A stretch of 64,000 nt of DNA from a virus (IMGVR_UViG_3300038393_001148); one strand, 5' to 3'; numbered from the stretch's first letter, positions 19,008 through 36,144 are shown. Numbers and translations: made by a program. The notes: generated by a model not told the origin, from the letters alone.

Positions 19008-19081
19008 GCCCTGGTAGCTCAGTTGGATAGAGCAGCAGACTTCTAATCTGCCGGTCACTGGTTCGAGTCCAGTTCAGGGCG
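19008..19081 (+). tRNA. tRNA-Arg(TCT)
   Basis: Full cloverleaf, loop CTTCTAA. Confidence 0.92.
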
Positions 19082-19110
19082 TTGACGGGCGAATATTCTC
19101 GTGATATAGT
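19082..19110 (+). promoter_or_regulatory. SigA-like promoter
   Basis: TTGACG-N17-TATAGT. Confidence 0.75.
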
Positions 19111-19118
19111 CCGTCGAG

Positions 19119-19254
19119 ACATAGACAGTAGCCCAATGGGCCACTGGCGCAGCCGTCAATACGGCAGAAGGTGGCGTGGATCCAGGCATATATACCCTGG
19201 CTCTGCACGGCATCGAGTTGCTAAAGGGTCGCACCCGAGGCAGTGTGTCTATGT
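19119..19254 (+). ncRNA. Unclassified structured RNA A (136 nt)
   Basis: Closing stem ACATAGACA/TGTCTATGT, internal hairpins, own promoter. Confidence 0.6.
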
Positions 19255-19262
19255 AAGTCTTA

Positions 19263-19344
19263 GGCGGGATAGCGAAGCGGTCAAACGCAGCGGACTGTAA
19301 ATCCGTCCTCTCCGAGTTCGAAGGTTCGAATCCTTCTCCCGCCA
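19263..19344 (+). tRNA. tRNA-Tyr(GTA)
   Basis: Cloverleaf with long variable arm, loop CTGTAAA. Confidence 0.92.
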
Positions 19345-19348
19345 CTTT

Positions 19349-19608
19349 AAGCGAAGTCATACGGCGTGCCCCAAAGATGTTATTAGACGTGGCCCTATAC
19401 GGGCGAAGGACTGGGTGACTACCTTCACATTGAGTAAGGATACCCACGACCGAAAGGTAAGCGCTCTCGTCCCTGGCTCTCAACCAGGAGATTATCGGGA
19501 GTATTCAGTGGTGAAATTGGTATACACGCCAGCCCTATAAGCTGGTGCCTACGGGCGTACGGGTTCGAATCCCGTCTGAATGCAGCTAACGAACGTATGA
19601 CTTCGCTT
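19349..19608 (+). ncRNA. 260-nt structured RNA enclosing a tRNA-Leu-like body with a TAT anticodon (19501-19584)
   Basis: Perfect 15-bp closing stem AAGCGAAGTCATACG/CGTATGACTTCGCTT; embedded cloverleaf with loop CCTATAA. Confidence 0.65.
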
Positions 19609-19661
19609 TATCTTGCAAGAGGCTGGGAGCTTGCCTAGCGTGTTCACGGAAAAGCTCCAAT

Positions 19662-19747
19662 GCGGTTGTGGCGGAATGGTAGACGCGCTTGGTTGAGGGC
19701 CAAGTGGGATTTATAGTCCCGTGGAAGTTCGAATCTTCTCAACCGCA
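19662..19747 (+). tRNA. tRNA-Leu(GAG)
   Basis: Cloverleaf, long V arm, loop TTGAGGG. Confidence 0.92.
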
Positions 19748-19759
19748 CTTATAGTCTTA

Positions 19760-19834
19760 GGAAGTGGCGTGAACGCACGGGGAAGTAAGGGCGAGCAGTG
19801 GGCTCGTACCTGCTTTTACACAAAGAACGCTTCC
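19760..19834 (+). ncRNA. Small structured RNA candidate
   Basis: Ends GGAAG..GCGT/ACGCTTCC pair; nested hairpin GCGAGC/GCTCGT. Confidence 0.35.
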
Positions 19835-19839
19835 GCTCT

Positions 19840-19921
19840 GCGCCCTTGGTGGAATTGGCAGACACGTCAGGTTTAGGTCCTGATGCCGCGAGGTGTGAAG
19901 GTTCGAGTCCTTCAGGGCGTA
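19840..19921 (+). tRNA. tRNA-Leu(TAG)
   Basis: Cloverleaf, loop TTTAGGT. Confidence 0.92.
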
Positions 19922-19923
19922 CT

Positions 19924-20099
19924 AGGTCAAGGACGGTTAAATTCCGCCCAGCAGCATGCGCTGGGATAAGAAGTGACTACCTTAGTTCTCTACTGACAAC
20001 GTTTGCTACGTCTAGGAATATGCGTTAGGGCCAGAGGGTTAGGCAAGCCCGCCCGTTAACGTGAGAGCAGAGAAACAGAGCTTCCCATATACTTGACCT
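19924..20099 (+). ncRNA. Unclassified structured RNA C (176 nt)
   Basis: Closing stem AGGTCAAG/CTTGACCT begins 2 nt after tRNA-Leu; hairpin CCCAGC/GCTGGG. Confidence 0.5.
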
Positions 20100-20106
20100 T
20101 ACTCTT

Positions 20107-20225
20107 GTCGTCCTGCCCAATACATGGGCCGGTGTGAAGCGCGACCGATGTAGTGGACCTGCGCGTAGGTATACATGCGCGCATAACAATTCTTACTAGG
20201 TCAAACAGGGCGTGGCAGTGACGAC
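20107..20225 (+). ncRNA. Unclassified structured RNA D (119 nt)
   Basis: Closing stem GTCGTC-CTGCC/GGCAG-T-GACGAC; internal GCCC/GGGC and GCGCG hairpins. Confidence 0.45.
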
Positions 20226-20472
20226 TGTTGGAGGCAACTCTACGGATAAGGGTGTCCCGTTGTTTAGCGATGATATCTGACCGGACCGGGCCACATTGGC
20301 ATATATAACCAATGTGGCATCTTCTGCTGATTAGAATTCAGCCGGGAAAGTTGAACTAGAGCCTAACTCCGATACATATCCCCCGAGGGTGCAGTTGCGC
20401 GGTATCCCTTTCGGCCCACCTCTTCTGTGGAACCCCCGTGCCACATAAAACAAAGACCGGGAAAGATTTATT

Positions 20473-20548
20473 GGGCGAATGGTGTTAATGGCTAACATGG
20501 GAGTCTCCAAAACTCTTGCTCTAGGTTCGAATCCTAGTTCGCCCGCCA
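20473..20548 (+). tRNA. tRNA-Trp(CCA)
   Basis: Cloverleaf, loop CTCCAAA; the only tRNA here with an encoded 3' CCA. Confidence 0.92.
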
Positions 20549-20622
20549 CGGGGAGTGGCGCAGTCTGGTAGCGCGCTTGCTTTGGGAGCAAGATGTCGCA
20601 GGTTCGAATCCTGTCTCCCCGA
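20549..20622 (+). tRNA. tRNA-Pro(TGG)
   Basis: Cloverleaf, loop TTTGGGA. Confidence 0.93.
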
Positions 20623-20624
20623 CT

Positions 20625-21008
20625 ATGAGTAACGTAATCAAGTACAAGGGAAATGATCGAGTTAAGGTCATAGTCGATATCGACCGATATCAGCTAGACG
20701 GAACGCTAGATAGCGTAGTCGGCTATCTTGCGGGTCTAGGCGTAGGCCTTGAGGATCCTACCCTCGATCTCTCTGTACACGAGGGACCCTACTACGATCC
20801 TATCGTAGTTGAGTTTACGCTGACGGGTTATCGTGAGCCAACTGAGGAAGAACTTACGGCTCACGAGAAGAAGAAGGTTCGTGACGCCGAAGCAGCCAAG
20901 AAGCGAGCAGAGAAGGAGAAGGCGGAACGTGTTGTAAAGCGTCAGAAGGACGCTGAGAAGGCACTCAAACTCGCCAGGAAGGAATTTCCGGAGCTATTCA
21001 AGGAATAG
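20625..21008 (+). CDS. Hypothetical protein with a basic coiled-coil tail
   Basis: ATG 2 nt after tRNA-Pro; no SD. Confidence 0.7.
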   Translation: MSNVIKYKGNDRVKVIVDIDRYQLDGTLDSVVGYLAGLGVGLEDPTLDLSVHEGPYYDPIVVEFTLTGYREPTEEELTAHEKKKVRDAEAAKKRAEKEKAERVVKRQKDAEKALKLARKEFPELFKE

Positions 21009-21017
21009 CTCCATTTA

Positions 21018-21090
<73 letters not shown>

Positions 21091-21116
21091 CTTGACGTGT
21101 GCGCCTGTAAGTCAAT

Positions 21117-21240
21117 ACATACAGGCATTGTCTAAACGTTACTGTTGGGCGGGAACCCAACAGAGCGGTCCCAAGGATGTAATTCCCTTGGAAGCGTGTT
21201 ACGTGACAAGAGGCGCACCTTGGAGGCGGTGCCTGTATGT
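21117..21240 (+). ncRNA. Unclassified structured RNA E (124 nt), related to RNA A
   Basis: 11-bp closing stem ACATACAGGCA/TGCCTGTATGT; hairpins CTGTTGGG/CCCAACAG and CCAAGG/CCTTGG. Confidence 0.6.
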
Positions 21241-21251
21241 CTCGTTCCCGA

Positions 21252-21323
21252 GCCCGGATAGCTGAGTGGTGTTAGCACCTGCCTTACAAGCAGGAGACGT
21301 AGGTTCGATTCCTACTCTGGGCA
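21252..21323 (+). tRNA. tRNA-Val(TAC)
   Basis: Cloverleaf, loop CTTACAA. Confidence 0.9.
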
Positions 21324-21324
21324 T

Positions 21325-21516
21325 ATGGCAAAGAAAAAGCAGGGATACGGAACCAAGTGCGATAAGTGCGAGGCCAAGCTCGGCGATGTCGAGATGAAGC
21401 GGGGCAAGCCGGTGCTGATTGATGGGAAACCGGTCAAGATCCCGATCTTCTCGTATGCCCGCGAAATCGGCGGAAAGTGCGAGACTCGCTGCCTCAAGCA
21501 CTTGACATCCAAGTGA
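21325..21516 (+). CDS. Small basic Cys-rich protein
   Basis: ATG 1 nt after tRNA-Val; CDKC...CETRC. Confidence 0.65.
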   Translation: MAKKKQGYGTKCDKCEAKLGDVEMKRGKPVLIDGKPVKIPIFSYAREIGGKCETRCLKHLTSK

Positions 21517-21535
21517 GCCTTGCTAGGCTACGCAT

Positions 21536-21757
21536 ATGAGTCATCCCGTGTTCATCTCTATCGGCCCCAAGAAGGTTGATACGGAGATCATCAAGAAGGC
21601 GATTAGCCTGAAGGAGAAGGATCTAGGTCGCCATCTCACTTCGACCGAGATTCTTCAGACGATGGGCGAGGTCTACGAGCCGGATGCGTCAAAGCGCACC
21701 TTCATCTCCTCCCGACCGCCCTCAAAGATGCCCAAGCTACACCTGCCGAGGTCTTAG
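21536..21757 (+). CDS. Hypothetical protein
   Basis: 73 aa ORF. Confidence 0.55.
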   Translation: MSHPVFISIGPKKVDTEIIKKAISLKEKDLGRHLTSTEILQTMGEVYEPDASKRTFISSRPPSKMPKLHLPRS

Positions 21758-22007
21758 TATGTGGAAAACTGTTTGGAATGTCATTTCGCTGCTCGCGTTC
21801 GCGCTGAGGTGGTGCGCGGACACGCTGGGCGAGGCCCAGTACTGGGCCTGGGAAAAGGCGGGCAGCCCTGGTGCCCAGGAATCATAACTCACTCTTCCGG
21901 ACCTACATGAGCCATCAGAAACGGGAGGATCTGTACACGTACTACAGATCATGGGGTCATAGTCGCCTCTTCTCCTGGTGGATGTCTCGCAGGTACGGAC
22001 AAGATTA

Positions 22008-22080
22008 GGGCCACTAACTCAGTTGGTAGAGTATTCGCTCGACACGCGAAAAGTCACTGGTTCGAGTCCAGTGTGGCCCA
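22008..22080 (+). tRNA. tRNA-Val(GAC), atypical C33
   Basis: Cloverleaf, loop TCGACAC. Confidence 0.8.
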
Positions 22081-22083
22081 CTA

Positions 22084-22186
22084 GGGAAGTCTATCTACAA
22101 CCGGTTGAACATATTCCTCCACTGGAAATAGTTACCGTGGTACGCCGCGAGGCGGTCAGACTGGAATCTGGCAGGTAGAACTTCCC
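22084..22186 (+). ncRNA. Structured RNA candidate (103 nt)
   Basis: Closing stem GGGAAGT/ACTTCCC, 3 nt after tRNA-Val. Confidence 0.45.
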
Positions 22187-22195
22187 AACCTTGTC

Positions 22196-22380
22196 ACAAT
22201 CACCATAACAAGCCCCAAAGGCGAGATGCATACTTTGTAAGGCCACATTGTGAGAGGCTAATGCAGACAAAGTATGCATCTCTGATCTTTGTACGGTCAA
22301 CATTAGTTGCGACGCTTCTTTGGAGCAAAGTTGTGTGTGGTGAGTACGCATAAGCGGTCAGGCGGGAACCTGGCGATTGT
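22196..22380 (+). ncRNA. Structured RNA candidate (185 nt)
   Basis: Closing stem ACAATCACCA/TGGCGATTGT (9 of 10 pairs); internal perfect 16-bp helix 22223-22238/22267-22282. Confidence 0.5.
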
Positions 22381-22387
22381 AGTACAT

Positions 22388-22935
22388 GGGGAGGACAGGC
22401 ATCGATTCGGTTCGACAACCTATCCACCTAGTTGTAGCGGTATGAGCACACCTACAGGCTCAAAGCCATAACTGGCGCTGATACTCATCAGTTCGCTCTC
22501 GCTGCCTAACCGGTAGCGAAAAAGCCGGGCCGCTGGAAGCCTGGGAACAGAACACCAGCGAGGTTAGAATCCTCCTGTGATCCGCAGAAGATCTAAGGTC
22601 CTCGACGCTGCCGCACTGGCGGCAGCGTAGGTGACTGAGCGCTCATAACGCTCGATTCGAATGGATAGCGACCAAGGTTTGGTGCCGACGCCTACTTTTA
22701 CCGGAGGGCCATCCTTGCAAGCAGAATTCTTCCGGTGTAGCCGGGAGTGGGTTGCTGAGACCTTAGGTAAATAGAATTCAGACAGTGCTAAGCGGACTCG
22801 CGATGTAAAGGCCCTTCCAGAAGGGAACGACCACCTCTCCGGCACGCACAGATAGCGAATTAGCACAGCAGTACAAGCTACTAGAAGACTAGAGATAGTG
22901 AACTGAAGACGAGGGTTCGAATCCCTCCCTCTCCA
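22388..22935 (+). ncRNA. ssrA: tmRNA, 548 nt, with an inserted domain
   Basis: Acceptor GGGGAGG/CCTCTCC-A with G3.U70, TPsiC arm, pk1, tag frame 22474-22509 (GADTHQFALAA*) after ATAACT. Confidence 0.93.
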
Positions 22936-22937
22936 CT

Positions 22938-23043
22938 TGGGATAGATGACACCGACTCCACGGTAGATAAGGGAGCACGGCTCTATGGCCGGTCAGGCAT
23001 TAGGTGATGCCGCACCTTTCGCAAACCCCGCCTCACTATCCCA
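22938..23043 (+). ncRNA. Structured RNA candidate (106 nt)
   Basis: Closing stem TGGGATAG/CTATCCCA, 2 nt after tmRNA. Confidence 0.5.
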
Positions 23044-23534: not shown

Positions 23535-23902
23535 TAACGCAGCACGAATGGAAGCTAAGTTCCTCTTAGCAGGTGCAGGACTGCGAAGCATCGGACCTTG
23601 GAATCGATGTGGAGTCACTGTTTCTCAAAGTCTGGTTAGAATCCGGCTGCTTTGAAGGGAAGGTGAGTAGGCTCAAATACTCTCACTTTCCCGAAGGTGA
23701 TCTGTGACCATTAAAAGGTGAGCGGAATCCCAGATCGCATGCAATCTGTCCGCAAAGGAGTAGGGAGAGGTGAATAAAGGCGCTAGTAGGGTCGGTTTAC
23801 CGACTGCCGAACGGTCTTTACGACCCTGTAGTACTCGACCGAAACCCGGAATCCGAGCTAGGGAATTTGCTACTCCCTTGACTGACTCGGCGCGCTGCGT
23901 TA
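23535..23902 (+). ncRNA. Large unclassified structured RNA (368 nt)
   Basis: Closing stem TAACGCAGC/GCTGCGTTA; several long helices; T-loop-like hairpin; no convincing ORF. Confidence 0.6.
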
Positions 23903-23912
23903 CTCTTGCAAT

Positions 23913-24341
23913 ATGCTGCTACGACGCATTCATCGCAATGCGCTCTCGTGGGTCAACGAAGAGCGGGCCTTGGCTGGACTGGACCCGATAGGCGACTTCC
24001 CAACGGGATTTCGCGGGGGTGATGCCAACCCCATCACGAACGCCTTGGGATCTCATGAGCGCGAGGTCGCCCCGAAGTTAGACGAGGCCATAAAGGAAGC
24101 GGAGGCGGACCCGCTCGGAGCGGCGTTAGAGGCTGCGGTTATTCCTAGCCCCATGTCGGCCTTCTTTTGGTTTGCGCTCTTTACGGTTGGGTTCTATCCC
24201 AAGTACGACCAGGCCAAGATGTATGAGAGGCTTCCGCCAAAGCGCCGTGCCCTTGTAGCAAGGAGGCTGCGGAACCTACCAAGCGATGCGCGAGAGCGGT
24301 ATTACCGCGTAGAGCAAGTGGTAAAAATGCTGAAGGAATAA
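23913..24341 (+). CDS. Hypothetical protein
   Basis: 142 aa ORF ending at the 5' end of tRNA-Ser. Confidence 0.65.
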   Translation: MLLRRIHRNALSWVNEERALAGLDPIGDFPTGFRGGDANPITNALGSHEREVAPKLDEAIKEAEADPLGAALEAAVIPSPMSAFFWFALFTVGFYPKYDQAKMYERLPPKRRALVARRLRNLPSDARERYYRVEQVVKMLKE

Positions 24342-24427
24342 GGAGAGGTGCCTGAGTGGTCGAAAGGGCTCGCCTGCTAAGCGAGTGTAGTTAATACCTA
24401 CCAGGGGTTCGAATCCCCTTCTCTCCG
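24342..24427 (+). tRNA. tRNA-Ser(GCT)
   Basis: Cloverleaf, long V arm, loop CTGCTAA. Confidence 0.92.
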
Positions 24428-24428
24428 C

Positions 24429-24457
24429 TTGACACCTGAAACGAAGTACGATAGGCT
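24429..24457 (+). promoter_or_regulatory. SigA-like promoter, near-leaderless
   Basis: TTGACA-N17-TAGGCT, ATG 6 nt later. Confidence 0.7.
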
Positions 24458-24463
24458 GAAGAT

Positions 24464-24925
24464 ATGAAGCTCGGAGAAGCACTAACATTACGAAGCGACC
24501 TAGTGTCGCGCTTGGGTGAGGTACGCAACCGTATCTCTTCCAACGTCCTGGTCCAGGACCAGGAGCGGCCAGCGGAGGACCCGAACGCCCTCATCGAGGA
24601 GCACGGAAACCTCTGCGATGAGCTTGAGAGCTTGGTCACCAAGATCAACCTCACCAACTCCCAGACGCGCCTTCCCTCCGGGGAGACGCTGACGGAGGCC
24701 CTCGTCAAGCGAGACGTGTTCGCCCAGCGTCTCAACGGCCTGCGGCAGGCGGCGCAAGCTGCCGATGTCACCCACGCCCGTCGCTACTCCCTCTCGGAGA
24801 TCAAGATGGTTCCGACCATCAAGGTTGCCGATCTCAATGAGGAGATCGATGGCTTGGCGAAGCAGCGCCGTCAGCTTGACACGGCGATCCAGGCCCATAA
24901 CTGGACCACGGATCTAGTAGAGTAA
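24464..24925 (+). CDS. DIP1984 family protein
   Basis: MKLGEALTLRSDL...VQDQERPAEDP...TLTEALVKRD...RYSLSEIK...IQAHNWTTDL matches the family pattern as I recall it. Confidence 0.8.
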   Translation: MKLGEALTLRSDLVSRLGEVRNRISSNVLVQDQERPAEDPNALIEEHGNLCDELESLVTKINLTNSQTRLPSGETLTEALVKRDVFAQRLNGLRQAAQAADVTHARRYSLSEIKMVPTIKVADLNEEIDGLAKQRRQLDTAIQAHNWTTDLVE

Positions 24926-25158
24926 GTTAGTTGGTAGTCGTAAAGTAGCGAATGTCAGGGCTGACTATGCGCCTTAAGCTAGTCCCATCGGAGACCCGAA
25001 ATCTCGCCTCCCCGCTGCGCGAAGGGAATAAGTTACCGTTCCGCGCCAACCGGGTACAGATGATCGTCACCGTTCATAAGTTACTACCAGACATTGAACT
25101 TTGCGATGAGGGATGGCATTACCCTGTAGGTAATGCCGGGTTCGGGGACTTAACTTAC
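24922..25158 (+). ncRNA. Structured RNA overlapping the DIP1984 stop codon (237 nt)
   Basis: Closing stem GTAAGTTA/TAACTTAC; TGGTAGT/ACTACCA; AATGTC/GACATT; 9-bp hairpin GGCATTACC/GGTAATGCC. Confidence 0.55.
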
Positions 25159-25163
25159 AACGA

Positions 25164-25237
25164 CGCGGGATAGTGGAAGCATGGCGCCACGCTAGCCTCA
25201 TAAGCTAGAGATCTGGGTTCGAATCCCGGTCCCGCTA
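25164..25237 (+). tRNA. tRNA-Met(CAT), initiator-like acceptor
   Basis: Cloverleaf, loop CTCATAA, C1:U72 mismatch, no 3GC anticodon stem. Confidence 0.85.
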
Positions 25238-25311: not shown

Positions 25312-25313
25312 CT

Positions 25314-25485
25314 TAGACGGTACGAAAGAGTTGCCCGTTACAAAACGGCTGGAAACAACGGGACATCCAACCTCAGAGCGGTTAGAATCCGCCATTCTAG
25401 GGCTTAGCGGCCCTACGTGCCTTAGCGGGCATAAGAATAAGGGAAATCGAGAGGTGCGAGCCGAAACACCCTCGCGCACCGTCTA
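25314..25485 (+). ncRNA. Structured RNA candidate (172 nt)
   Basis: Closing stem TAGACGGT/ACCGTCTA, 2 nt after tRNA-Lys; GCGG-TTAGAAT-CCGC and TAGGGC/GCCCTA hairpins. Confidence 0.55.
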
Positions 25486-25549
25486 TCTATAATAACTTCG
25501 GAGCCGAGATCGAAGCGGCCAACTCTGACCCGGAGTCTAAATGGGTAAT

Positions 25550-25623: not shown

Positions 25624-25625
25624 CT

Positions 25626-25720
25626 AGAGGACCGGTCGATGGATAAGTTCGAACTATTCCATCCCTCAGACACAAGCGGCCATGCTGTTGTCTGCGTATG
25701 AACTGGCGACCGCATCCTCT
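25626..25720 (+). ncRNA. Structured RNA candidate (95 nt)
   Basis: AGAGGA-CGGTCG/CGACCG-TCCTCT closing helix, 2 nt after tRNA-Ile; two internal hairpins. Confidence 0.5.
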
Positions 25721-25728
25721 TAATCTAC

Positions 25729-25901
25729 TGATCCCATGGGTCAGCCTGTTCTCGCCAGGGAAATTGCCTACAACTGTGTGGCGATATGTTTGTAGGAAGC
25801 CGCCCTCCCACGCCAGGGGCCAGAATAGCGGCAGCGAGAAACTTAACTCACCAAGCCCAACCTCTATTGGTAAGAATAGAGTAGTATCCCTTACCGGATC
25901 A
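25729..25901 (+). ncRNA. Structured RNA candidate (173 nt)
   Basis: TGATCC/GGATCA ends; TTCTCGC/GCGAGAA internal helix. Confidence 0.4.
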
Positions 25902-25966
25902 ATGCGAAAATCCTCCATGTTGGCATGGTCGCGGGAGCAAGGATTGGAATCCGAGGCTCCCACCAA

Positions 25967-26194: not shown

Positions 26195-26266
26195 GGCGGG
26201 GTGGCGGAATGGCTTACGCACGGGTCTGCAAAACCTGTTATACGGGTTCGATTCCCGTCCTCGCCT
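26195..26266 (+). tRNA. tRNA-Cys(GCA)
   Basis: Cloverleaf, loop CTGCAAA, U73. Confidence 0.9.
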
Positions 26267-26268
26267 CT

Positions 26269-26460
26269 ATGCAGTTGCTTACTATCGAAGAATTTCATGC
26301 ACTACCCGAAGGTACCGAGCTAATCTCAATTCTTGATGAGGTCAAGATCAAGGGCAGGGATTATATCGATCTTGACACCCGCGCCGGGTTGATAGCTTGG
26401 TATGTTCGAAAGCTACCTGAGCCTACGCTTGCGGACAGTGAATGGATCGATAATAGTTGA
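26269..26460 (+). CDS. Hypothetical protein (63 aa)
   Basis: ATG 2 nt after tRNA-Cys. Confidence 0.6.
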   Translation: MQLLTIEEFHALPEGTELISILDEVKIKGRDYIDLDTRAGLIAWYVRKLPEPTLADSEWIDNS

Positions 26461-26553: not shown

Positions 26554-26674
26554 GGGGCGAATGGTAAGGTAGCCCGTCAATTCGTGGCGTCCGGTGTCGT
26601 TCGAGCCGACGTTAAACATATGGATGCAAATAGGGTAGTTCCCGCCTACTTGGGTTCGAATCCCAAGCGCCCCA
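26554..26674 (+). ncRNA. tRNA-like RNA with an expanded anticodon arm (121 nt)
   Basis: GGGGCG/CGCCCC-A acceptor, TTGGG-TTCGAAT-CCCAA T arm, GCGTCC/GGATGC stem with a 29-nt loop. Confidence 0.55.
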
Positions 26675-26707
26675 TCTGCGGAGTCAAGGTTCCGTACCTT
26701 AATATGT

Positions 26708-27253
26708 ATGAACCTCCGCTGGGCCGCTTTCCTTGATGCGCTAGAAATTATCGTTCGGTACAGTTCGGTTCTCCTTGCTGTAGGATTATTGACCTGGGCC
26801 GTTTCTTCTATCACGGTTAACAAGAAGACACAAGAGATAAATCGCATTGTTCGCACTATCCAGGAAGCCAAGCGTGGACCTCGGGGTGAACGTGGTCCGT
26901 CTGGACCTCAAGGATTGCGAGGCCGCGAAGGTGCGGTTGGACCGAGAGGCGTTCAGGGTCGGACGGGCGCTAGCGGCCCTAGAGGACAGAGGGGTCCACA
27001 GGGCGCACAGGGCCAGCGAGGTGCCGAAGGGCTTCGGGGACCCCAGGGTGTACAGGGCGCTACAGGAAAAACTGGAGCAACTGGTCCCGAAGGCCCTCGC
27101 GGTGAGCGAGGCCCAACTGGCGCTCAAGGAGCTACGGGGCTACGCGGCCCTCAAGGAATCCCTGGAGTCCAGGGCCCGTTGGGACCTGAAGGGCCGATTG
27201 GCCCACGAGGACCAATCGGTTCGGTCACTTGTCAGGTTTTACAAAGCTGCTGA
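26708..27253 (+). CDS. Membrane-anchored collagen-like protein
   Basis: N-terminal TM helix followed by about 38 Gly-X-Y triplets. Confidence 0.85.
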   Translation: MNLRWAAFLDALEIIVRYSSVLLAVGLLTWAVSSITVNKKTQEINRIVRTIQEAKRGPRGERGPSGPQGLRGREGAVGPRGVQGRTGASGPRGQRGPQGAQGQRGAEGLRGPQGVQGATGKTGATGPEGPRGERGPTGAQGATGLRGPQGIPGVQGPLGPEGPIGPRGPIGSVTCQVLQSC

Positions 27254-28022: not shown

Positions 28023-28051
28023 TTGACTGTCCGTAGATGGACTGGTATCAT
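28023..28051 (+). promoter_or_regulatory. SigA-like promoter
   Basis: TTGACT-N17-TATCAT, ATG 6 nt later. Confidence 0.7.
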
Positions 28052-28057
28052 GGATCT

Positions 28058-28207
28058 ATGACTCAATATTACGTAGGAGCGGTTATCGGGGCCATCCTAG
28101 CCGTCATCGGTTACCTCGGCCCCGAGGATGGAGGGACGCTAGAGCTTATTGGCCTTGCGATTCTCGCTGTTGCCCTCTATAAGCTTTTCGACCTGAACTG
28201 GTTCTGA
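28058..28207 (+). CDS. Small two-TM membrane protein (49 aa)
   Basis: Manual translation MTQYYVGAVIGAILAVIGYLGPEDGGTLELIGLAILAVALYKLFDLNWF. Confidence 0.65.
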   Translation: MTQYYVGAVIGAILAVIGYLGPEDGGTLELIGLAILAVALYKLFDLNWF

Positions 28208-28686: not shown

Positions 28687-28759
28687 GCCTCCGTAACTCA
28701 ATTGGCAGAGTGGCTGACTTTTAATCAGAACGTTGCAGGTTCGAGTCCTGCCGGGGGCA
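28687..28759 (+). tRNA. tRNA-Lys(TTT)
   Basis: Cloverleaf, loop CTTTTAA. Confidence 0.92.
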
Positions 28760-28761
28760 CT

Positions 28762-29109
28762 ATGTTCCAGGTTGGTGATGTACTCAAATATGCCAAATCT
28801 GAACTTGACCCTCCGATGATTTGCCAGCACGGAGAATACGTTGGCACAGTGCTGGCTATCGAGGAGGGTGGCCGGATGCGTGTTATGTGGCACTGGGATC
28901 CCGTAGAATATTGTCGCATCCATGGTTCCTCGATCTCTCGGATCCAAGAAACTTGGAAAGGGCAGTCGGGGGTTAGGGGTTATTGTGCCTCGGTTTCGGC
29001 CTTCTTTTATTTCTCCAATGATTGCGCAGTATGCGGCAGGACGATTGGGCACGTTTTGGATTACATCTGTAGTGAATGTCGTAACATGGCCGATTCGTCC
29101 AGTGGTTAG
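28762..29109 (+). CDS. Zn-ribbon tag protein (member 2)
   Basis: ATG 2 nt after tRNA-Lys; CAVC-x8-DYICSECR; stop codon lies inside tRNA-Glu. Confidence 0.7.
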   Translation: MFQVGDVLKYAKSELDPPMICQHGEYVGTVLAIEEGGRMRVMWHWDPVEYCRIHGSSISRIQETWKGQSGVRGYCASVSAFFYFSNDCAVCGRTIGHVLDYICSECRNMADSSSG

Positions 29110-29159: not shown

Positions 29160-29197
29160 CTCTTGATCCATTCTCCCGCGTTTGGTAGTATCTTCTC

Positions 29198-29533
29198 ATG
29201 AGAGTCCGCGCTGTATACACCCTCAAGTCCTTTGCCGAACTAAAGGATGCTCTTGAGTACGCCAAGAGCATCAAGGCGGGAGCGGGAAGCCATGCGGACG
29301 CTGAGCTAGAGATTGAGTTCGATAAGAAATCAAAGAAGCTCGGATCCCTCGGCGGCAAAGGACTCACAGCGATCTTGCCCACCTCACCTCCAGAGGAAGA
29401 GGAGTCAGCGCTTCCCTGGAAGGTGGTCGTGGTCAACGAGGATCCGGTGCCCGGAGGAAGTCCCTGCGCCGAGTGTGACCAGCCCCATTTCGAGGAAGAC
29501 TTCCTCTGCTCTGATTGTCGAGCCGCCGCATGA
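29198..29533 (+). CDS. Zn-ribbon tag protein (member 3)
   Basis: CAEC-x7-DFLCSDCR. Confidence 0.75.
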   Translation: MRVRAVYTLKSFAELKDALEYAKSIKAGAGSHADAELEIEFDKKSKKLGSLGGKGLTAILPTSPPEEEESALPWKVVVVNEDPVPGGSPCAECDQPHFEEDFLCSDCRAAA

Positions 29534-30725: not shown

Positions 30726-30798
30726 GCGCCTGTAGCTCAGTGGATAGAGCGCATCCCTGCGGAGGATGAGGTCACTGGTTCAAATCCAGTCAGGCGCG
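30726..30798 (+). tRNA. tRNA-Arg(GCG)
   Basis: Cloverleaf, loop CTGCGGA. Confidence 0.88.
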
Positions 30799-30800
30799 CT

Positions 30801-31103
30801 ATGGCCGAATGTGCTAATTGTGAAATGCGGCAGGCCCCGGAGGAAGATTTCCTCTGCCAATCCTGTCGGGACTGGGAGAACGGGGAGATCAGCTTGGAGA
30901 GTATCTTCGTCGCCGAGTCTCATGATAAATTTGCTCCACCAGAGGCCGCCATGGAGATGGCGAGATGCGATAACGTCGTTTACTTCACGATGTGCAAGTA
31001 CGAGGAAGGTACTTTCCACCGCAAGGCTGATGTCAAGGCTACGTTCTCCATGGACATCAAGACGTTGCTCAAGGCCCTTCGAGCATTGGATGTGGTAGAG
31101 TAA
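30801..31103 (+). CDS. Zn-ribbon tag protein (member 6, N-terminal tag)
   Basis: ATG 2 nt after tRNA-Arg; CANC-x8-DFLCQSCR. Confidence 0.75.
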   Translation: MAECANCEMRQAPEEDFLCQSCRDWENGEISLESIFVAESHDKFAPPEAAMEMARCDNVVYFTMCKYEEGTFHRKADVKATFSMDIKTLLKALRALDVVE

Positions 31104-31304: not shown

Positions 31305-31378
31305 GCCCTTGTCGCCTAACGGATATGGCACTTGACTTCGGATCAAGAATAATGCGGGTTCGAATCCTGCCGGGGGCG
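31305..31378 (+). tRNA. tRNA-Arg(TCG)
   Basis: Cloverleaf, loop CTTCGGA. Confidence 0.88.
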
Positions 31379-31386
31379 CTCGTCTA

Positions 31387-32469
31387 ATGGACAACAATAT
31401 GCTGATCACACAACAGGAGCACAACGCCTACTCCTATCCGGCTCAGAGGTTTAATGAGACGGTAGAAGAGCTAAACCTCCCGCATCAGAGATACGCTCAG
31501 TGGAGCACTGATGCAGAAAACGCCGATCTTCAGGTGTATGTGGAGAGAGGCTTTTCGAGTCGTTACAACGACGACAATAGTCTCTACGTTGCCTTTACGG
31601 AGAGCGATAGCAAGGCTGCGGGTTGGATCCAGCTTCAAAGCGGTTTGGTATACGTCACCGTTGCGGCGCAAACGGCTGAGCGAGCGGAGTCCCTGCTAGC
31701 GGACATTGAGAATGTCATTCCTCGCTCCGAGGAGACGGACACGGAGTCCGAGGTTTCCATCGGCTTTTGGTCGCTCGGTCCGCAAGGTCCGAGCCGCATG
31801 AACCGGCGTATTGCGGTCCCAGTTTGGGACGAGATCAAGAATAATTACACCAAGGATGTCAAGGAGTCGCTTGAGTCCTTGATGGAGATTAAGAGCGGCA
31901 AGGATCTTGGCGACGGTCAGCTTATTCTCTGGCAGGGAGAGCCCGGCACGGGCAAGACCTATGCCCTGAGATCGCTAGCCTCGGCATGGCACAAGTGGTG
32001 TGAGTTTCATTACATCACCGATCCAGAGCAGTTCTTTGGAAGTCATTCCAACTACATGTTGAATGTCATCCTCCACGACAGCAACCCATATGGGGTGGAG
32101 GAGGAGCCAAGGTGGAAACTCCTCATTCTGGAGGATTCCGGCGAGCTATTGCGCGCCGATGCCAAGCAGGTCGTCGGTCAGGCGCTTTCTCGCTTGCTCA
32201 ACACGGTTGATGGTCTGATCGGTCAGGGCCTCCGTCTCTTGGTTCTCGTCACCACTAACGAGGAGATGGAAAAGCTCCATCCCGCTGTGTCCCGTCATGG
32301 GCGCTGCCTCCAGCAGGCAGAGTTTGGCCCCTTGACAAGGGACGAGGTTCGCGCTTGGATGGACGAGAATGACATCGAAGGCGATGTCGTCCCGATGTCG
32401 GCAGCTAACCTCTACGCCTTGAAGAACGGCAAGAAGGCTGAGGAAAAGCGCCTCGTAGGCTTCCACTAG
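31387..32469 (+). CDS. AAA+ ATPase (DUF5925-like N-terminus)
   Basis: GEPGTGKT, LILED, RLLNTVDGLIGQG, TTNE and PAVSRHGRC motifs. Confidence 0.85.
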   Translation: MDNNMLITQQEHNAYSYPAQRFNETVEELNLPHQRYAQWSTDAENADLQVYVERGFSSRYNDDNSLYVAFTESDSKAAGWIQLQSGLVYVTVAAQTAERAESLLADIENVIPRSEETDTESEVSIGFWSLGPQGPSRMNRRIAVPVWDEIKNNYTKDVKESLESLMEIKSGKDLGDGQLILWQGEPGTGKTYALRSLASAWHKWCEFHYITDPEQFFGSHSNYMLNVILHDSNPYGVEEEPRWKLLILEDSGELLRADAKQVVGQALSRLLNTVDGLIGQGLRLLVLVTTNEEMEKLHPAVSRHGRCLQQAEFGPLTRDEVRAWMDENDIEGDVVPMSAANLYALKNGKKAEEKRLVGFH

Positions 32470-32475: not shown

Positions 32476-32549
32476 GCGGCTGTAGCTCAGTTGGCTAGAG
32501 CGTCTCCTTGCCATGGAGAAGGTCGAGGGTTCGAATCCCTTCAGCCGCT
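32476..32549 (+). tRNA. tRNA-Gly(GCC)
   Basis: Cloverleaf, loop TTGCCAT. Confidence 0.93.
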
Positions 32550-32606
32550 TTGTTTGGCATCTTTTGGGAAGGGTATTCCTAGTACAAACCCTTTTCGAAA
32601 GGATTT

Positions 32607-32765
32607 ATGTCAGTCTTACTTTGGATACTCGGTATTATCCTCGTCATATTTGGCTTCTTCTGGATTCTCGGAGGATCGCTGCTATATGGCATCATCGCCA
32701 TTGTGATAGGCCTACTCCTAATGGGCTATCTCGGCGGTGGGTTTGGATATACCCGACGATTGTAA
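32607..32765 (+). CDS. Small two-TM membrane protein (52 aa), resembling actinobacterial GPGG-motif proteins
   Basis: Manual translation MSVLLWILGIILVIFGFFWILGGSLLYGIIAIVIGLLLMGYLGGGFGYTRRL; GAAAGGA SD. Confidence 0.65.
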   Translation: MSVLLWILGIILVIFGFFWILGGSLLYGIIAIVIGLLLMGYLGGGFGYTRRL

Positions 32766-33260
32766 TCATCAGGGCAACCGTATGCAGTAACTTGGGCTCC
32801 CGAGAGGGAGCCCTTGTTATTGAGGAAAGTCCGGACACTGCGCGAGCCACTGAGGCTGGAACCTCAGCAGGGACGGGTAACAATGGAGGGAGATCGCTGT
32901 CGTCCGTACCCCTTAAGTGGGACGACTTAATGCTCATGTGGGAGCGGCGTCACTTGTACCTCAGCCGACAGTCAAGCGGTGCAACCTCAAGCTGGTCAAG
33001 GGCATGACCTAGGTAGAGGGCAGTCCTTCGGGACCAACGCATTGGTAGTAGAAGATACGATCCACAAATTAGCTACACGTCATTGGCTGCGAACGGCCAC
33101 TCCGGTTACTAAGAGTGGGATGACGGGGCCAGGGTGGAGAATCGGGAATCCCTGGATGCGTTGAGATGGATATACGGATCGCAGGTAGTAATAGGTAGAG
33201 GCAGGCATCACGTCGCTACCTAGCGTGTAGAACAGAATCCGGCTTAAAGCCAGATGATTA
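32763..33260 (+). ncRNA. rnpB: RNase P RNA (divergent, about 498 nt)
   Basis: P4 strands GAGGAAAGTCCGG (32822) and ACAGAATCCGGCTTA (33232); P1 TAATCATC/GATGATTA; P2 CCGTAT/ATACGG. Confidence 0.88.
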
Positions 33261-33276
33261 CTGACACGTAAGTGTC

Positions 33277-33564
33277 GTGAAGTCCCTATGGGCGACCATT
33301 CAGGACAATCCTGTCTTATTCAGGAGGATAAACGGGTGGCTCACCGTGGTTTGGTTCATTGGGGCCATTCCAATTTGTTTGTTCTTAGCAAACTCGGTTC
33401 CATTCTTGGTGTTCATCTCCGTTTATGCCGTAGTGACGGGCCACCTTTCTACTTGGCAGGCCGCGAACGTAGAGGTACGCCAAGAGGAAGAGTCTCAAAA
33501 GCGAGACGATGAAGCTCCTGAGCGTATCGAGAAGAAGGTCGAGCAATTGAACAAGCAGGTGTAA
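33277..33564 (+). CDS. Membrane protein, two TM helices plus an acidic/basic tail
   Basis: 95 aa, GTG start. Confidence 0.6.
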   Translation: MKSLWATIQDNPVLFRRINGWLTVVWFIGAIPICLFLANSVPFLVFISVYAVVTGHLSTWQAANVEVRQEEESQKRDDEAPERIEKKVEQLNKQV

Positions 33565-33569
33565 CACTT

Positions 33570-33640
33570 TGGGGAATGAGGTAACGGCAGCCTGCGAGGT
33601 TTTGGCCCTCGTCGTCCTGGTTCGAATCCAGGTTCCCCAG
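33570..33640 (+). tRNA. tRNA-Gln(TTG)
   Basis: Cloverleaf, loop TTTTGGC. Confidence 0.88.
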
Positions 33641-33682
33641 CTTTCAGCTAGATAATCAAGAAGTCCGAGAGGTAACCTATGA

Positions 33683-34294
33683 ATGGGTTACCTTAACGGC
33701 CGACTTCCATCAGCAGTTCTTGCGTCCATCCCTGGTGGACGCCTGCGTAGGGATGCGGCCAAGGCATTCAACGCTATGAATGCTGAGTCCGAAGCCCGCT
33801 TCGGAGTCACGCTGCGGCCTACGGGTAGGATGTCGTCCTACAGGACGTTGAATGAGCAGCGTTATCTCTACAACCTGTACCTCCAGGGTAGAGGGAACCT
33901 AGCCGCCGTTCCTGGCACATCCAACCACGGTCTGGGCCTTGCCGTTGACTTGGCAACGCATCAGATGCGTGATATAGTAGACCAAATAGGCGCAAAATAC
34001 GGCTGGGCCAAGAGATGGTCAGACGCGCCTTCTGAATGGTGGCACATTAAGTGGAGGAGCGGAGTTTGGAACGGAAAGGTACCAGATAAATACAAAACCC
34101 TAAAGCGGGGACAGACTGGGCCTTCGGTTCTACGAATGAAGAAGGCGATGAGGAAACACGGACTTCAGCAATTCAATGCCTACACTCCGTTTTTCGATAA
34201 GCGGACGGAGGCTGCACTAAAGCGGCTTCAGCATCGTCATGGGTTGAAGGCAGACGGGATCTGTGGACCTAAAACATGGTCTCTGATCACCTAG
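33683..34294 (+). CDS. Peptidase M15 (D,D-carboxypeptidase-like) with a PG-binding domain; endolysin-like
   Basis: SYR..EQ, PGTSNHGLGLAVD and EWWH motifs; C-terminal LKADGICGPKTW. Confidence 0.88.
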   Translation: MGYLNGRLPSAVLASIPGGRLRRDAAKAFNAMNAESEARFGVTLRPTGRMSSYRTLNEQRYLYNLYLQGRGNLAAVPGTSNHGLGLAVDLATHQMRDIVDQIGAKYGWAKRWSDAPSEWWHIKWRSGVWNGKVPDKYKTLKRGQTGPSVLRMKKAMRKHGLQQFNAYTPFFDKRTEAALKRLQHRHGLKADGICGPKTWSLIT

Positions 34295-34366
34295 CCTGTC
34301 TAGCTCAATTGGTAGAGCGCCAACCTTGTAAGTTGGGGGTTATCGGTTCGAGTCCGATGGCAGGCT
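34294..34366 (+). tRNA. tRNA-Thr(TGT)
   Basis: Cloverleaf, loop CTTGTAA. Confidence 0.92.
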
Positions 34367-34369
34367 CTT

Positions 34370-34579
34370 ATGCTTGATCGCAGTGCAAGACTTCTTACTG
34401 AGTACCAGTATGAAATTGCTTTGAAGAAAGAGCAAGAGTGGTTTAATCGTGTATCGCTTGAATGTCCAGAATGTGGGGTTAGGACCATCCTCCCTAGGGA
34501 GGACTATCTCTGCGCGGAATGTCGCCTATCCTATGGCGACAACGGCGAAATGGGCTATACCATGCCCGACTTGCGATGA
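34370..34579 (+). CDS. Zn-ribbon tag protein (member 7)
   Basis: ATG 3 nt after tRNA-Thr; CPEC-x9-DYLCAECR. Confidence 0.7.
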   Translation: MLDRSARLLTEYQYEIALKKEQEWFNRVSLECPECGVRTILPREDYLCAECRLSYGDNGEMGYTMPDLR

Positions 34580-34844
34580 AATTCCGCGTCTCCAGCAGTG
34601 GTGTCCTGACTGTCGTGATCGTGGCGTAGCCACGAAGGGCCTAGGCCGCAACCGCAGTGGTAACGTCATGCTTGAGCAGATGAAGCTTGAGCGGCAGAAA
34701 ATGGAGATGGAGGCTGCTCAGGAAGCTGAGCAAGCTCGTATCGAAAGTCGTACCATGATGTGCCCAGAGTGTGATACACTGGGCTTCGTGGAAGAGAACG
34801 ACTATATTTGTACGAAATGCCGTAATGATGTCTCGGGGGTGTAG
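34533..34844 (+). CDS. Zn-ribbon tag protein (member 8)
   Basis: N-terminal CPTC/CPDC and C-terminal CPEC-x9-DYICTKCR. Confidence 0.7.
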   Translation: MATTAKWAIPCPTCDEIPRLQQWCPDCRDRGVATKGLGRNRSGNVMLEQMKLERQKMEMEAAQEAEQARIESRTMMCPECDTLGFVEENDYICTKCRNDVSGV

Positions 34845-34907
34845 CTCAGTTGGTAGAGCGCCTGCTTTGCAAGCAGGATGTCAGGGGTTCGAGTCCCCTC
34901 TCCTCCA
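34835..34907 (+). tRNA. tRNA-Ala(TGC)
   Basis: Cloverleaf, loop TTTGCAA, G3.U70. Confidence 0.9.
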
Positions 34908-34962
34908 TGAAACAAACTTGGCGACGAGCCAGGGCAACGCGATAGCGCGACTACGGTCGATA

Positions 34963-35039
34963 ATGAGACGGGCGGCTGGTGCGGCTAAGGGAGTCATGTC
35001 CCTCTATGCTGAGGTTCGAATCCTCGAAGCTCGTCTCAT
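34963..35039 (+). ncRNA. Degenerate tRNA-like RNA
   Basis: 11-bp ATGAGACGGGC/GCTCGTCTCAT stem, GAGG-TTCGAAT-CCTC arm, AGGGA/TCCCT arm with a 6-nt GTCATG loop. Confidence 0.45.
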
Positions 35040-35041
35040 AC

Positions 35042-35113
35042 GCGGGTAAGGTGTTACTGGCTGCACGGGAGCCTTCCAAGCTCTAAGAACGGGTTCGAGT
35101 CCCGTTACCCGCT
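35042..35113 (+). tRNA. tRNA-Gly(TCC)
   Basis: Cloverleaf, loop CTTCCAA. Confidence 0.88.
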
Positions 35114-35116
35114 TAA

Positions 35117-35255
35117 GTAACCTATCCTAGGGGCCGGAACCCTGATGATGGTCGGGTTGCTGCCTGAGTAGCTCAGAAATTGTCACCAGACGGAGCGAGC
35201 CGGAACTCGCATTGATGTCTGTAATGAGAGCGGCAGAACTTATCCTGTAGGTCAC
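35117..35255 (+). ncRNA. Structured RNA candidate (139 nt)
   Basis: GTAACCTA/TAGGTCAC ends (7 of 8 pairs); two CCGGAA hexaloop hairpins. Confidence 0.45.
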
Positions 35256-35284
35256 GGTCTGACGAACCGTCTCGGGCGACACTT

Positions 35285-35569
35285 ATGTTGAACGATTTCG
35301 GAGTTCCCACTTCGGCTTCCAAGAGGAAATGTCGCAAGCCAAAGTACCTGAAGGGTTACAAGGCCTGGTGCGGGGTGCATCAGGAGACCCGGAAGATGGC
35401 GGCTCGCGCTAGCAGGAAGAATAATCGGATCGAGATGACAATCGACCCGGCGAAGATGAAGCGCACGCCCGATCAGGGCAAACGGCAGGTCGCGGCTAAT
35501 CGCTGCGGCAACGGTTGCGGCCGTCGTGCTGTAATGAAGGATTATCTTTGCCCGCGCTGTCGCGGGTGA
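35285..35569 (+). CDS. Zn-ribbon tag protein (member 9)
   Basis: CGNGC-x7-DYLCPRCR. Confidence 0.7.
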   Translation: MLNDFGVPTSASKRKCRKPKYLKGYKAWCGVHQETRKMAARASRKNNRIEMTIDPAKMKRTPDQGKRQVAANRCGNGCGRRAVMKDYLCPRCRG

Positions 35570-35572
35570 TCT

Positions 35573-35646
35573 GGAGACGTAGCTCAGTTGGTTAGAGCGC
35601 TGCCCTGTCACGGCAGAGGTCGCGGGTTCGAGCCCCGTCGTTTCCG
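35573..35646 (+). tRNA. tRNA-Asp(GTC)
   Basis: Cloverleaf, loop CTGTCAC. Confidence 0.93.
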
Positions 35647-35669
35647 CTTAGTATATTTAGTCAATTGCT

Positions 35670-36059
35670 ATGCCTAACATATACTATTCCCCAGAGAAGT
35701 TCGGCCTCAAGGTCGTCGCGGAGCTAGAGTACTCAGACATGAACTATGTGTTTGACACACTGGTTGTGTGGGCCGATGAGAATGGAGTTCTCTATTCTGC
35801 ACGCGATGCAGGTTGTTCATGTCCTACTCCGTTTGAGGATTATGGATCCATCGCTGAGCTAGATCGCGTTCACTATTCCTCTCTGAGGGATGAGGTGCAG
35901 GCATCTAGGGGCGATGGGAACCCAGATTTTGATCGGGATCGGCGAGTCTTCTTGCTCGACGTGAAGAATTTCACGGGTTGGGATACCAACCCATGCGCTG
36001 ATTGCAGACAGCCAGCACTCTTGGGTGACTACCTCTGCAAGGCCTGCCGGGAGGCCTAA
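35670..36059 (+). CDS. Zn-ribbon tag protein (member 10)
   Basis: CADC-x7-DYLCKACR; N-terminal domain with DAGCSCPTPF. Confidence 0.75.
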   Translation: MPNIYYSPEKFGLKVVAELEYSDMNYVFDTLVVWADENGVLYSARDAGCSCPTPFEDYGSIAELDRVHYSSLRDEVQASRGDGNPDFDRDRRVFLLDVKNFTGWDTNPCADCRQPALLGDYLCKACREA

Positions 36060-36069
36060 TCCCGGTCCC

Positions 36070-36144
36070 GGCTCTATAGCTCAGTTGGTTCAGAGCGCAC
36101 GACTCATAATCGTGAGGTCGAGAGTTCAAGTCTCTCTAGAGCCA
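36070..36144 (+). tRNA. tRNA-Met(CAT), elongator type
   Basis: Cloverleaf, loop CTCATAA, G1-C72. Confidence 0.9.

Follow-up and report, generated by a model that had tools for sequence, protein, structure and literature searches.

We analyzed a tRNA island at positions 19008-36144 of a 64,000-nucleotide (nt) stretch of DNA (IMGVR_UViG_3300038393_001148, hereafter the window) from an uncultured large phage with a GC content of ~54%. ARAGORN, Rfam and discriminators placed by the T-loop rule define 38 credible tRNA genes in the island, 37 of them without an encoded CCA, set among small open reading frames (ORFs), a transfer-messenger RNA (tmRNA), an RNase P-like RNA and structured spacers. On balance, we read the island as a tight mosaic in which small genes would be made leaderless either by promoters or by excision of the preceding tRNA. 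For comparison, we used five related phages whose islands are syntenic: homologues of an AAA protein encoded in the island led to L001 and L004, and alignment of a 228-amino-acid (aa) island protein led to L012, L013 and L014 in IMG/VR. Together with the window phage they form what we call the clade. The spans given below for genes, tRNA-ORF junctions, promoter-led ORFs and RNAs lie on the plus strand.

Six ORFs of 63-127 aa in the window start at +1 to +3 after a tRNA, and all six ATGs are where a sequence-only reading of this DNA had placed them. Four of these ATGs are separated from the discriminator base (N73) by CT: ATG 20625 of a 127-aa ORF behind tRNA-Pro (N73 20622; 20549-21008), ATG 26269 of a 63-aa ORF with a weak PHROG match behind tRNA-Cys (N73 26266; 26195-26460), ATG 28762 of a 115-aa ORF with a zinc-ribbon tag behind tRNA-Lys(ttt) (N73 28759; 28687-29109), and ATG 30801 of a 100-aa ORF behind tRNA-Arg(gcg) (N73 30798; 30726-31103), a junction kept in L001 and L004. 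The 63-aa ORF at ATG 21325 follows tRNA-Val(tac) (N73 21323) after a single T (21252-21516), at a junction also found in L004, and the 69-aa zinc-ribbon ORF at ATG 34370 follows tRNA-Thr(tgt) (N73 34366) after CTT (34294-34579).

The sequence-only reading had proposed statistics of tRNA-to-ATG distance as a check, and across the clade these bear out the proximity. We took the 87 tRNAs of the six phages that have at least 140 nt after them and counted ATG-initiated ORFs of at least 45 aa by their offset. Eight begin at +1, eight at +2, two at +3 and two at +4, giving a total of 20, while other 4-nt offset bins hold a mean of 2.1 and a maximum of 6 (an excess of about tenfold; Poisson p = 2e-13). 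Offsets +5 to +16 are nearly empty, with four cases. One ATG lies at -1 and none at 0, and this near-total lack indicates that starts respect the tRNA plus a one- or two-base trailer. The tRNAs concerned differ between phages: an ATG junction occurs after Thr-tgt in four phages, Arg-gcg in three, Val-tac in two, and Glu-ctc, Asn, Ala, Lys and Leu in one each. These differing tRNA-ORF pairs suggest that selection acts on proximity and not on a particular sequence.

The same arrangement was sought outside the clade. Two genomes of Thermoleophilia (G004 and G005) have no start at 0 to +8 behind any of 88 tRNAs (Fisher p = 3e-4). Mycobacterium phage Spud has no such junction either, its coding sequences (CDSs) beginning ~70-80 nt after tRNAs. 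Jay2Jay, a cultured phage of Streptomyces, reads N73-C-ATG/GTG at seven tRNAs, and three of these codons are already GenBank CDS starts. In the same genome (KM652554, 72-107.5 kb), upstream N73-C-ATG/GTG codons open ORFs of 109, 65 and 66 aa ahead of the annotated CDSs after tRNA-Phe (95781) and tRNA-Leu(gag) (105445) and of the first CDS after tRNA-Ser(gct) (106812); these three GenBank genes may be annotated too short.

Judged by their sequences, the tRNA-adjacent ORFs are real genes. Three of them (28762, 30801 and 34370) share a phage zinc-ribbon tag, D[YF][LI]CxxCR. The 30801 ORF has its first CxxC ahead of the next ATG in frame, so its true start is the ATG at +2. Behind tRNA-Thr(tgt), L001 has a homologue of the 34370 ORF at +2, and L012 and L013 each have one at +4; the proteins of the window and L012 align from M1, and the L001 homologue has no alternative ATG. 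It could be argued that the adjacent ORFs are decaying or spurious and not usefully expressed, the pattern arising from trailer composition (T or CT followed by A/T-rich sequence). Most of them indeed lack a Pfam or PHROG family, and a chance TATG does occur at a tRNA-tRNA spacer (Glu-ttc of L004). We nevertheless consider this explanation extremely improbable: several of the ORFs have the zinc-ribbon signature or homologues in related phages, the roughly tenfold enrichment was obtained with long ORFs only, and the high-GC host genomes, which are rich in chance ORFs, give none.

The 3' ends of the tRNAs were then defined base by base. N73 was placed at T54 + 19 by the T-loop rule, in agreement with the end of the Rfam model for 37 of 37 tRNAs. 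ARAGORN called 39 tRNAs in the island and Rfam 38; the extra ARAGORN call, a tRNA-Ser(cga) at 26624-26710, was dropped as doubtful, having a 3-bp D stem and no T-loop motif. The sequence-only reading had counted 36 tRNAs, a number that now rises to 38, and had seen a single one encoding CCA, which stands. The only encoded CCA (20546-20548) belongs to tRNA-Trp (20473-20545), and tRNA-Pro begins at the very next base. N73 is followed by CT in 22 of the 38 tRNAs, the same figure as counted earlier, by T in ten, by CCT in two and by other bases in three, in addition to the CCA of tRNA-Trp; the tmRNA, also counted earlier, has A73 and then CUU. CT makes up 0.063 of positions in the window (binomial p = 4e-17), and 35 of the 38 trailers do not begin with CC. 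Clade-wide, tRNA-tRNA junctions included, 156 of 166 tRNAs show N73-T or N73-CT, in a mix that varies: CT is commonest in the window and L013, T in the other clade phages.

The CT trailer is real, yet by its distribution it is a host-type pre-tRNA 3' trailer, not the phage-specific punctuation signal that had been proposed. Scattered chromosomal tRNAs follow the same rule in 25 of 25 cases in G004 (CT 12, T 13) and in 26 of 28 in G005 (T 23, CT 2, CCT 1), where the remaining two encode CCA, so that N73-(C)-T is found in 51 of 53 tRNAs of the two genomes together. Since N73-(C)-U also stands at tRNA-tRNA junctions, in all relatives and in Thermoleophilia chromosomes, the trailer is not a phage device. 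For this element, the outcome is the one that the sequence-only reading had itself named as refuting, a CT trailer no more frequent than in host CCA-less tRNAs. It does point to Thermoleophilia as the probable host lineage, an assignment that stays at the level of inference from sequence. Cellular homologues of the island AAA protein also come nearly all from Thermoleophilia (Gaiellales and Solirubrobacterales). In Spud, by comparison, C74 is present in 23 of 23 tRNAs and the next base is mostly G, and in Jay2Jay C74 is present in 40 of 41 with a variable next base. The bases after N73 are a practical, lineage-dependent host marker: they read (C)U in the clade and Thermoleophilia, whereas phages of mycobacteria and Streptomyces have C74 plus a variable base, which in Spud is mostly G.

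The trailer bears on how the tRNAs are released. RNase Z cuts CCA-less precursors after the discriminator, best once RNase P has removed long 5' leaders, and CC or CCA trailers inhibit it (PMC1874595, PMC7479834). One could instead suppose a capping role for the tRNA at the 5' end, in which, as proposed for plant tRNA-mRNA dicistrons, the two parts of the chimera stay joined and the tRNA fold blocks 5'-end-dependent decay or recruits factors, and translation begins just behind the tRNA. Plants do have dicistronic tRNA-mRNA transcripts, and stable 5' structures are generally known to protect bacterial mRNAs. We think this very unlikely in the island, because the host-type (C)U trailer is kept at ORF junctions too, indicating a 3' cut there, and because functional-looking tRNAs covering nearly all codon families, with a CCA-adding-type enzyme in relatives, mean that the tRNAs must be released.

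A second class of leaderless starts is suggested by promoters. We searched 17-38 kb for full matches to TTGACN, 16-18 nt, TANNNT and found seven, four of which have an ATG 6 nt after the -10 box. These are TTGACA, 17 nt, TAGGCT before ATG 24464 of a DUF6847 gene (24429-24925), whose -35 box lies 1 nt after tRNA-Ser(gct); TTGACA, 16 nt, TAGGCT before ATG 21536 (21502-21757); TTGACT, 17 nt, TACTCT before ATG 23913 (23878-24341), in an ORF whose TAA abuts tRNA-Ser(gct) at 24342; and TTGACT, 17 nt, TATCAT before ATG 28058 (28023-28207). In another of the seven (TTGACA, 18 nt, TATCGT), ATG 17855 lies 8 nt after the -10 box, immediately upstream of the island (17817-18727). An eighth site, read directly from the sequence, has TTGATC, 17 nt, TAGTAT and ATG 29198 6 nt further (29163-29533), with the -35 box 3 nt after tRNA-Glu(ctc). 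Leaderless spacing does not show with TANNNT alone, a motif so degenerate that it gives only a weak peak at 6 nt.

Clade-wide, ORF starts show a second peak at +35 to +38 after tRNAs, part of which is, from the positions of the boxes, explained by promoters abutting tRNAs. With at least six internal or edge promoter-like sites spaced for transcription to start at the ATG, the island is not one long transcript as the sequence-only reading had supposed; plus-strand terminators in it are few. This geometry fits leaderless mRNAs, which the phage very probably uses here. We lean towards two routes to them, one placed by promoters and one derived from tRNA processing. A promoter hidden inside the tRNA was considered for the adjacent ORFs and ruled out, the -10 position being occupied by GC-rich bases of the acceptor or T stem. 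TTGACG also occurs at 19082-19110 and 21092-21120, right after tRNA-Arg(tct) and tRNA-Thr(ggt); these motifs may be -35 boxes or 5' arms of hairpins in which TTGAC pairs with GTCAA, and that at 21092 was not counted as a promoter. In L012 and L014, CTTGAC stands directly after three tRNAs.

From the architecture, its statistics, its conservation and the host-type trailer, all computed here, we infer that tRNA and ORF are co-transcribed, where the cut falls and that its product is translated. The phage tRNA genes would copy the N73-(C)-U trailer of the host lineage, and most protein genes of the island would be expressed as leaderless or near-leaderless mRNAs. In the first route, a sigma-70-type promoter would place its -10 box 6 nt before the ATG, often with the -35 box directly against the preceding tRNA. 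In the second, the ORF would begin 1-3 nt past the discriminator. Neither a promoter nor a Shine-Dalgarno (SD) sequence fits between a 7-bp acceptor stem and an ATG placed 1-3 nt behind it, so such an ORF must be co-transcribed with the tRNA and needs tRNA 3' processing for a free 5' end. RNase P and then the host tRNA 3' endonuclease (RNase Z or an equivalent) would excise the tRNA and make the ORF translatable, leaving a 5'-monophosphate end 0-2 nt before the AUG.

Propionibacterium acnes is an actinobacterium in which no RNase Z homologue is obvious; there, fragments from downstream of tRNAs have their 5'-monophosphate ends at tRNA 3' ends, and cuts within CCA always come after C74, the first of its two Cs (PMC3848588). 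Cutting after N73 or after C74 would produce U-AUG or CU-AUG in the clade and a perfect 5' AUG in Jay2Jay. The ATG would lie as near the tRNA as the obligatory (C)U trailer permits because every nucleotide added at the 5' end lowers leaderless initiation; Caulobacter retains ~45% of activity with a 1-nt leader and ~24% with a 2-nt one, roughly a halving per nucleotide (PMC8459731). The phage RNase P-like RNA would plausibly add 5'-processing capacity for the tRNA load.

Several points weigh against this reading. 5'-monophosphate ends attract RNase J and RNase E, and a cut at N73 would leave a leader of 1-3 nt, not 0. The inferred host has a GC content of ~68% versus 54% in the phage. Mycobacteria need the start codon at the very 5' end (PMC4633059), and with 1-3 nt in front of it activity may be reduced. 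Finally, 13 clade ORFs stop inside the downstream tRNA, ten at U8-A9-G10 and three with TA joined to G1, and RNase P cleavage would strip these stops to give non-stop mRNAs. Such stops imply either that some translation takes place on RNA still carrying the next tRNA, or that non-stop products are tolerated or handled.

In the window, the VanY/peptidoglycan-binding lysin gene (33683-34294) ends in a TAG whose G is base 1 of tRNA-Thr(tgt), and a zinc-ribbon ORF (34449-34844) overlaps tRNA-Ala by 10 nt, its stop being U8-A9-G10, as also in L001, L004 and L012. The 28762 ORF, which is outside the 13, runs 22 nt into tRNA-Glu(ctc) (start 29088) to its stop at 29107-29109; a doubtful ORF at 24952-25173 is also among the window cases ending in the next tRNA. 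Overall, ORF stops range from -14 to +22 relative to the next tRNA. Completion of incomplete stops could fit the three TA-G1 junctions, while the ten stops at tRNA positions 8-10 are not completable by added As.

The overlapping stops also bear on the possibility that the island reflects compaction only, or mobile small genes inserting at tRNA ends, with SD-independent internal initiation on unprocessed polycistronic RNA and tRNA excision merely competing with or ending ORF expression. Promoters, next tRNAs and ORF stops all touch tRNA borders; the 13 ORFs need the sequence of the next tRNA for their stop, making unprocessed RNA translatable at least at 3' junctions; and SD use is weak throughout the window. 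Compaction does not, however, predict the asymmetry between starts, which avoid overlap with the tRNA, and ends, which often overlap it, nor the nearly empty zone from +5 to +16. Moreover, an SD-less start 1-2 nt behind a stable 7-bp acceptor stem would be a poor 30S loading site. The downstream sequence also shows selection for accessibility: across the 20 adjacent ORFs, the first 30 nt past N73 have a mean minimum free energy of -1.9 kcal/mol versus -4.8 in internal windows (Wilcoxon p = 4e-5), with a GC content of 42% versus 51%. We therefore regard compaction alone as unlikely and retain the processing of tRNA-ORF transcripts as the preferred explanation of the adjacent starts.

A more ambitious version would make the island a self-contained, processing-driven unit, in which tRNA maturation, boosted by the phage RNase P RNA, would switch on small early proteins by giving their mRNAs leaderless 5' ends and would at the same time limit them by cutting off the stops that lie in the next tRNA, the non-stop products being cleared by the tmRNA with its tag ending in ALAA. 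If true, protein output would be tied kinetically to the tRNA-processing capacity of the infected cell. On the present sequences, we hold this coupling to be quite unlikely. The tmRNA gene (22388-22938) was identified by alignment with Rfam RF00023 (36.2 bits for a gathering score of 47, E = 1e-12) and is missed by ARAGORN. Its tRNA-Ala-like ends, GGGGAGG and CCUCUCC-A, accompany a T arm, with A73 at 22935. The tag frame reads ...ADTHQFALAA followed by UAA, a tag that we take to resemble those of actinobacteria. This canonical ALAA ending rules out, for this phage, a harmless tag that would spare non-stop products. In L004 and L012, the tmRNA tags read by ARAGORN are odd and non-canonical.

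The RNase P RNA that the sequence-only reading had placed in the island is represented by an RNase P-like gene of class A with large insertions at 32766-33261. Its RF00010 score of 25.4 bits does not reach the gathering score of 100, and the alignment with class A runs from end to end, with the P1 pairing aligned and ~280 nt of inserted sequence unaligned to the model. Conserved region I (CR-I), GAGGAAAGTCCGG, is exact at 32822, and CR-V, ACAGAATCCGGCTTA, is present at 33232; these are the strands that form P4. The slot, between tRNA-Gly(gcc) and tRNA-Gln(ttg), is occupied in three clade members: the L001 slot has an RNase P-clan match with both the CR-I and CR-V motifs, and that of the L012 record scores 40.2 bits (E = 2e-12). 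No RNase P-like RNA was seen in L004 or L013.

Seven tRNA-RNA junctions had also been described in which the closing stem of a structured RNA would begin just after the trailer, and this claim holds only in part. Minimum free energy folds do start 2-4 nt after a tRNA at five positions (19924, 22084, 25313, 25626 and 35116). Folding better than that of mononucleotide shuffles was seen for the spacers 22081-22387 (z -3.2), 25624-25966 (z -2.3) and 34908-35041 (z -2.6) but not for 19922-20472 (z -0.3), 25312-25549 (z -0.5) and 19345-19500 (z -0.3), so that the claim is weakly supported as a whole. The fold of the first (22081-22387) begins 3 nt after N73 of tRNA-Val(gac). The spacer at 34908-35041 ends in a tRNA-like element at ~34963-35039, which combines a long acceptor-like stem, a canonical T arm GAGGTTCGAATCCTC and a hairpin whose 7-nt loop contains CAT. 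This element ends 2 nt before tRNA-Gly(tcc) and is called by neither ARAGORN nor Rfam. Between the tmRNA and tRNA-Thr(cgt), the segment 23144-23270 gives sub-threshold matches to tRNA (24.6 bits) and to YrlA, a Y RNA-like family (23.9 bits, E = 0.02), and from these may be a Y RNA with a tRNA-like module.

With regard to processing enzymes, no CCA-adding enzyme was found among the 20 large window ORFs scanned. PolyA_pol domains, of the CCA-adding enzyme family, occur in giant ORFs of 1198 and 1560 aa in the L012 and L013 records (loci L015 and L016). In L009, a more distant relative, acetyltransferase, PolyA_pol and HD domains are combined in one protein of 1000 aa. The related phages yielded no Lactamase_B_2 (RNase Z-type) gene. 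Both Thermoleophilia genomes match the RNase Z model: the G005 match exceeds the family cut-off, and that in G004 is split into two neighbouring pieces that both fall short of it.

Replication genes occupy the minus strand to ~15 kb; the plus strand then carries ribonucleotide reductase, the tRNA island, and genes for lysis and for structural proteins. A strong hairpin resembling a bidirectional terminator (18977-18999; 9 bp, seven of them GC, then a T run) stops 8 nt short of the first island tRNA, and a promoter-like site lies at 18744, ~200 nt upstream. Within the island, an ORF at 26708-27253, whose ATG overlaps the 3' end of the dropped ARAGORN tRNA-Ser(cga), encodes a 181-aa collagen-like protein (Gly-X-Y repeat) that has a hydrophobic segment at the N terminus.

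The island AAA protein is a DUF5925-AAA ATPase, the gene of which (31387-32469) starts after an 8-nt spacer behind tRNA-Arg(tcg) (N73 31378; 31305-32469 with the tRNA). It lies beside or within dense tRNA arrays in the window phage, L001 and L004, and has the same neighbourhood in Thermoleophilia chromosomes (G004 C3 ~158.5-164.4 kb, L128 and L129; G005 C8 ~500.5-506.5 kb, L157 and L159). In G004, the gene ends 55 nt before a tight run of ~20 tRNAs of host-like GC. This shared neighbourhood in phages and chromosomes suggests a tRNA-related function for the ATPase or a mobile tRNA-array unit. L002 has zero tRNAs. Four other relatives found through the AAA protein (L006-L009) lack a tRNA island near its gene; a 165,085-bp contig also records the protein. 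As a single-sequence query against viral and genome contigs it found no match, but alignment-based queries succeeded. Megablast of the island against GenBank phages matched single tRNAs only, blastn with a five-tRNA block gave generic tRNA matches only, tblastn with the 228-aa island protein gave no match, and the terminase is just ~29% identical to those of Mycobacterium cluster C phages.

In the literature, we found no description of phage tRNA punctuation, of processing-derived leaderless mRNAs at tRNA ends or of a phage RNase P RNA. If our reading is true, the island would be the first counterpart of mitochondrial tRNA punctuation in a bacterial virus and would add a second, post-transcriptional route to leaderless mRNAs in bacteria, offering a reason for the abundance of small genes in large actinophage tRNA islands. 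Gene calling would also be affected, as starts 1-2 nt past a tRNA are often missed or shifted, for example in Jay2Jay. That phage, grown on Streptomyces lividans, provides a cultured system for testing.

Mitochondrial tRNA punctuation reportedly goes back to Ojala, Montoya and Attardi in 1981, and the 5' ends of human mitochondrial mRNAs to Montoya et al. in the same year. As in mitochondria, the phage has protein genes flanked by tRNAs with 0-3 nt between, excision by RNase P and RNase Z would set the mRNA ends and release leaderless mRNAs, and a few stop codons (TA-G1) straddle the tRNA border. Unlike mitochondria, the island has several internal promoters and no single transcript, only about a quarter of its tRNA-to-gene junctions are of this type, ORFs often extend 10-22 nt into the next tRNA, and the system, being that of a phage, would rely on host enzymes. 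A bacterial operon that joins the two kinds of gene is thrU-tyrU-glyT-thrT-tufB of E. coli, where a single transcript holds tRNAs together with a protein gene until tRNA processing parts them; unlike the genes of the island, tufB has an ordinary leader with an SD, and the tRNA cut does not make the translation start.

The closest phage architectures are those of Spud (cluster C) and Jay2Jay, which likewise carry dozens of CCA-less tRNAs and a tmRNA on one strand with small ORFs between. They differ from the clade, where N73-(C)-U precedes the ATG, in having C74 followed mostly by G (Spud) or N73-C-ATG/GTG (Jay2Jay). As with plant mitochondrial t-elements, tRNA-like folds such as the element at ~34963-35039 may mark processing, but the phage junctions use complete, functional-looking tRNAs. 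With the leaderless mRNAs of Actinomycetota (mycobacteria, PMC4633059; P. acnes, PMC3848588) the island shares SD-less starts, a predicted promoter geometry that would set the ATG at +1 and a dominance of AUG; unlike them, its second class of mRNAs would acquire the 5' end by processing (a monophosphate with 0-2 extra nt) and not by initiation. Taken together, these comparisons incline us to see in the island a probable combination of mitochondrial-type punctuation with actinobacterial leaderless translation.

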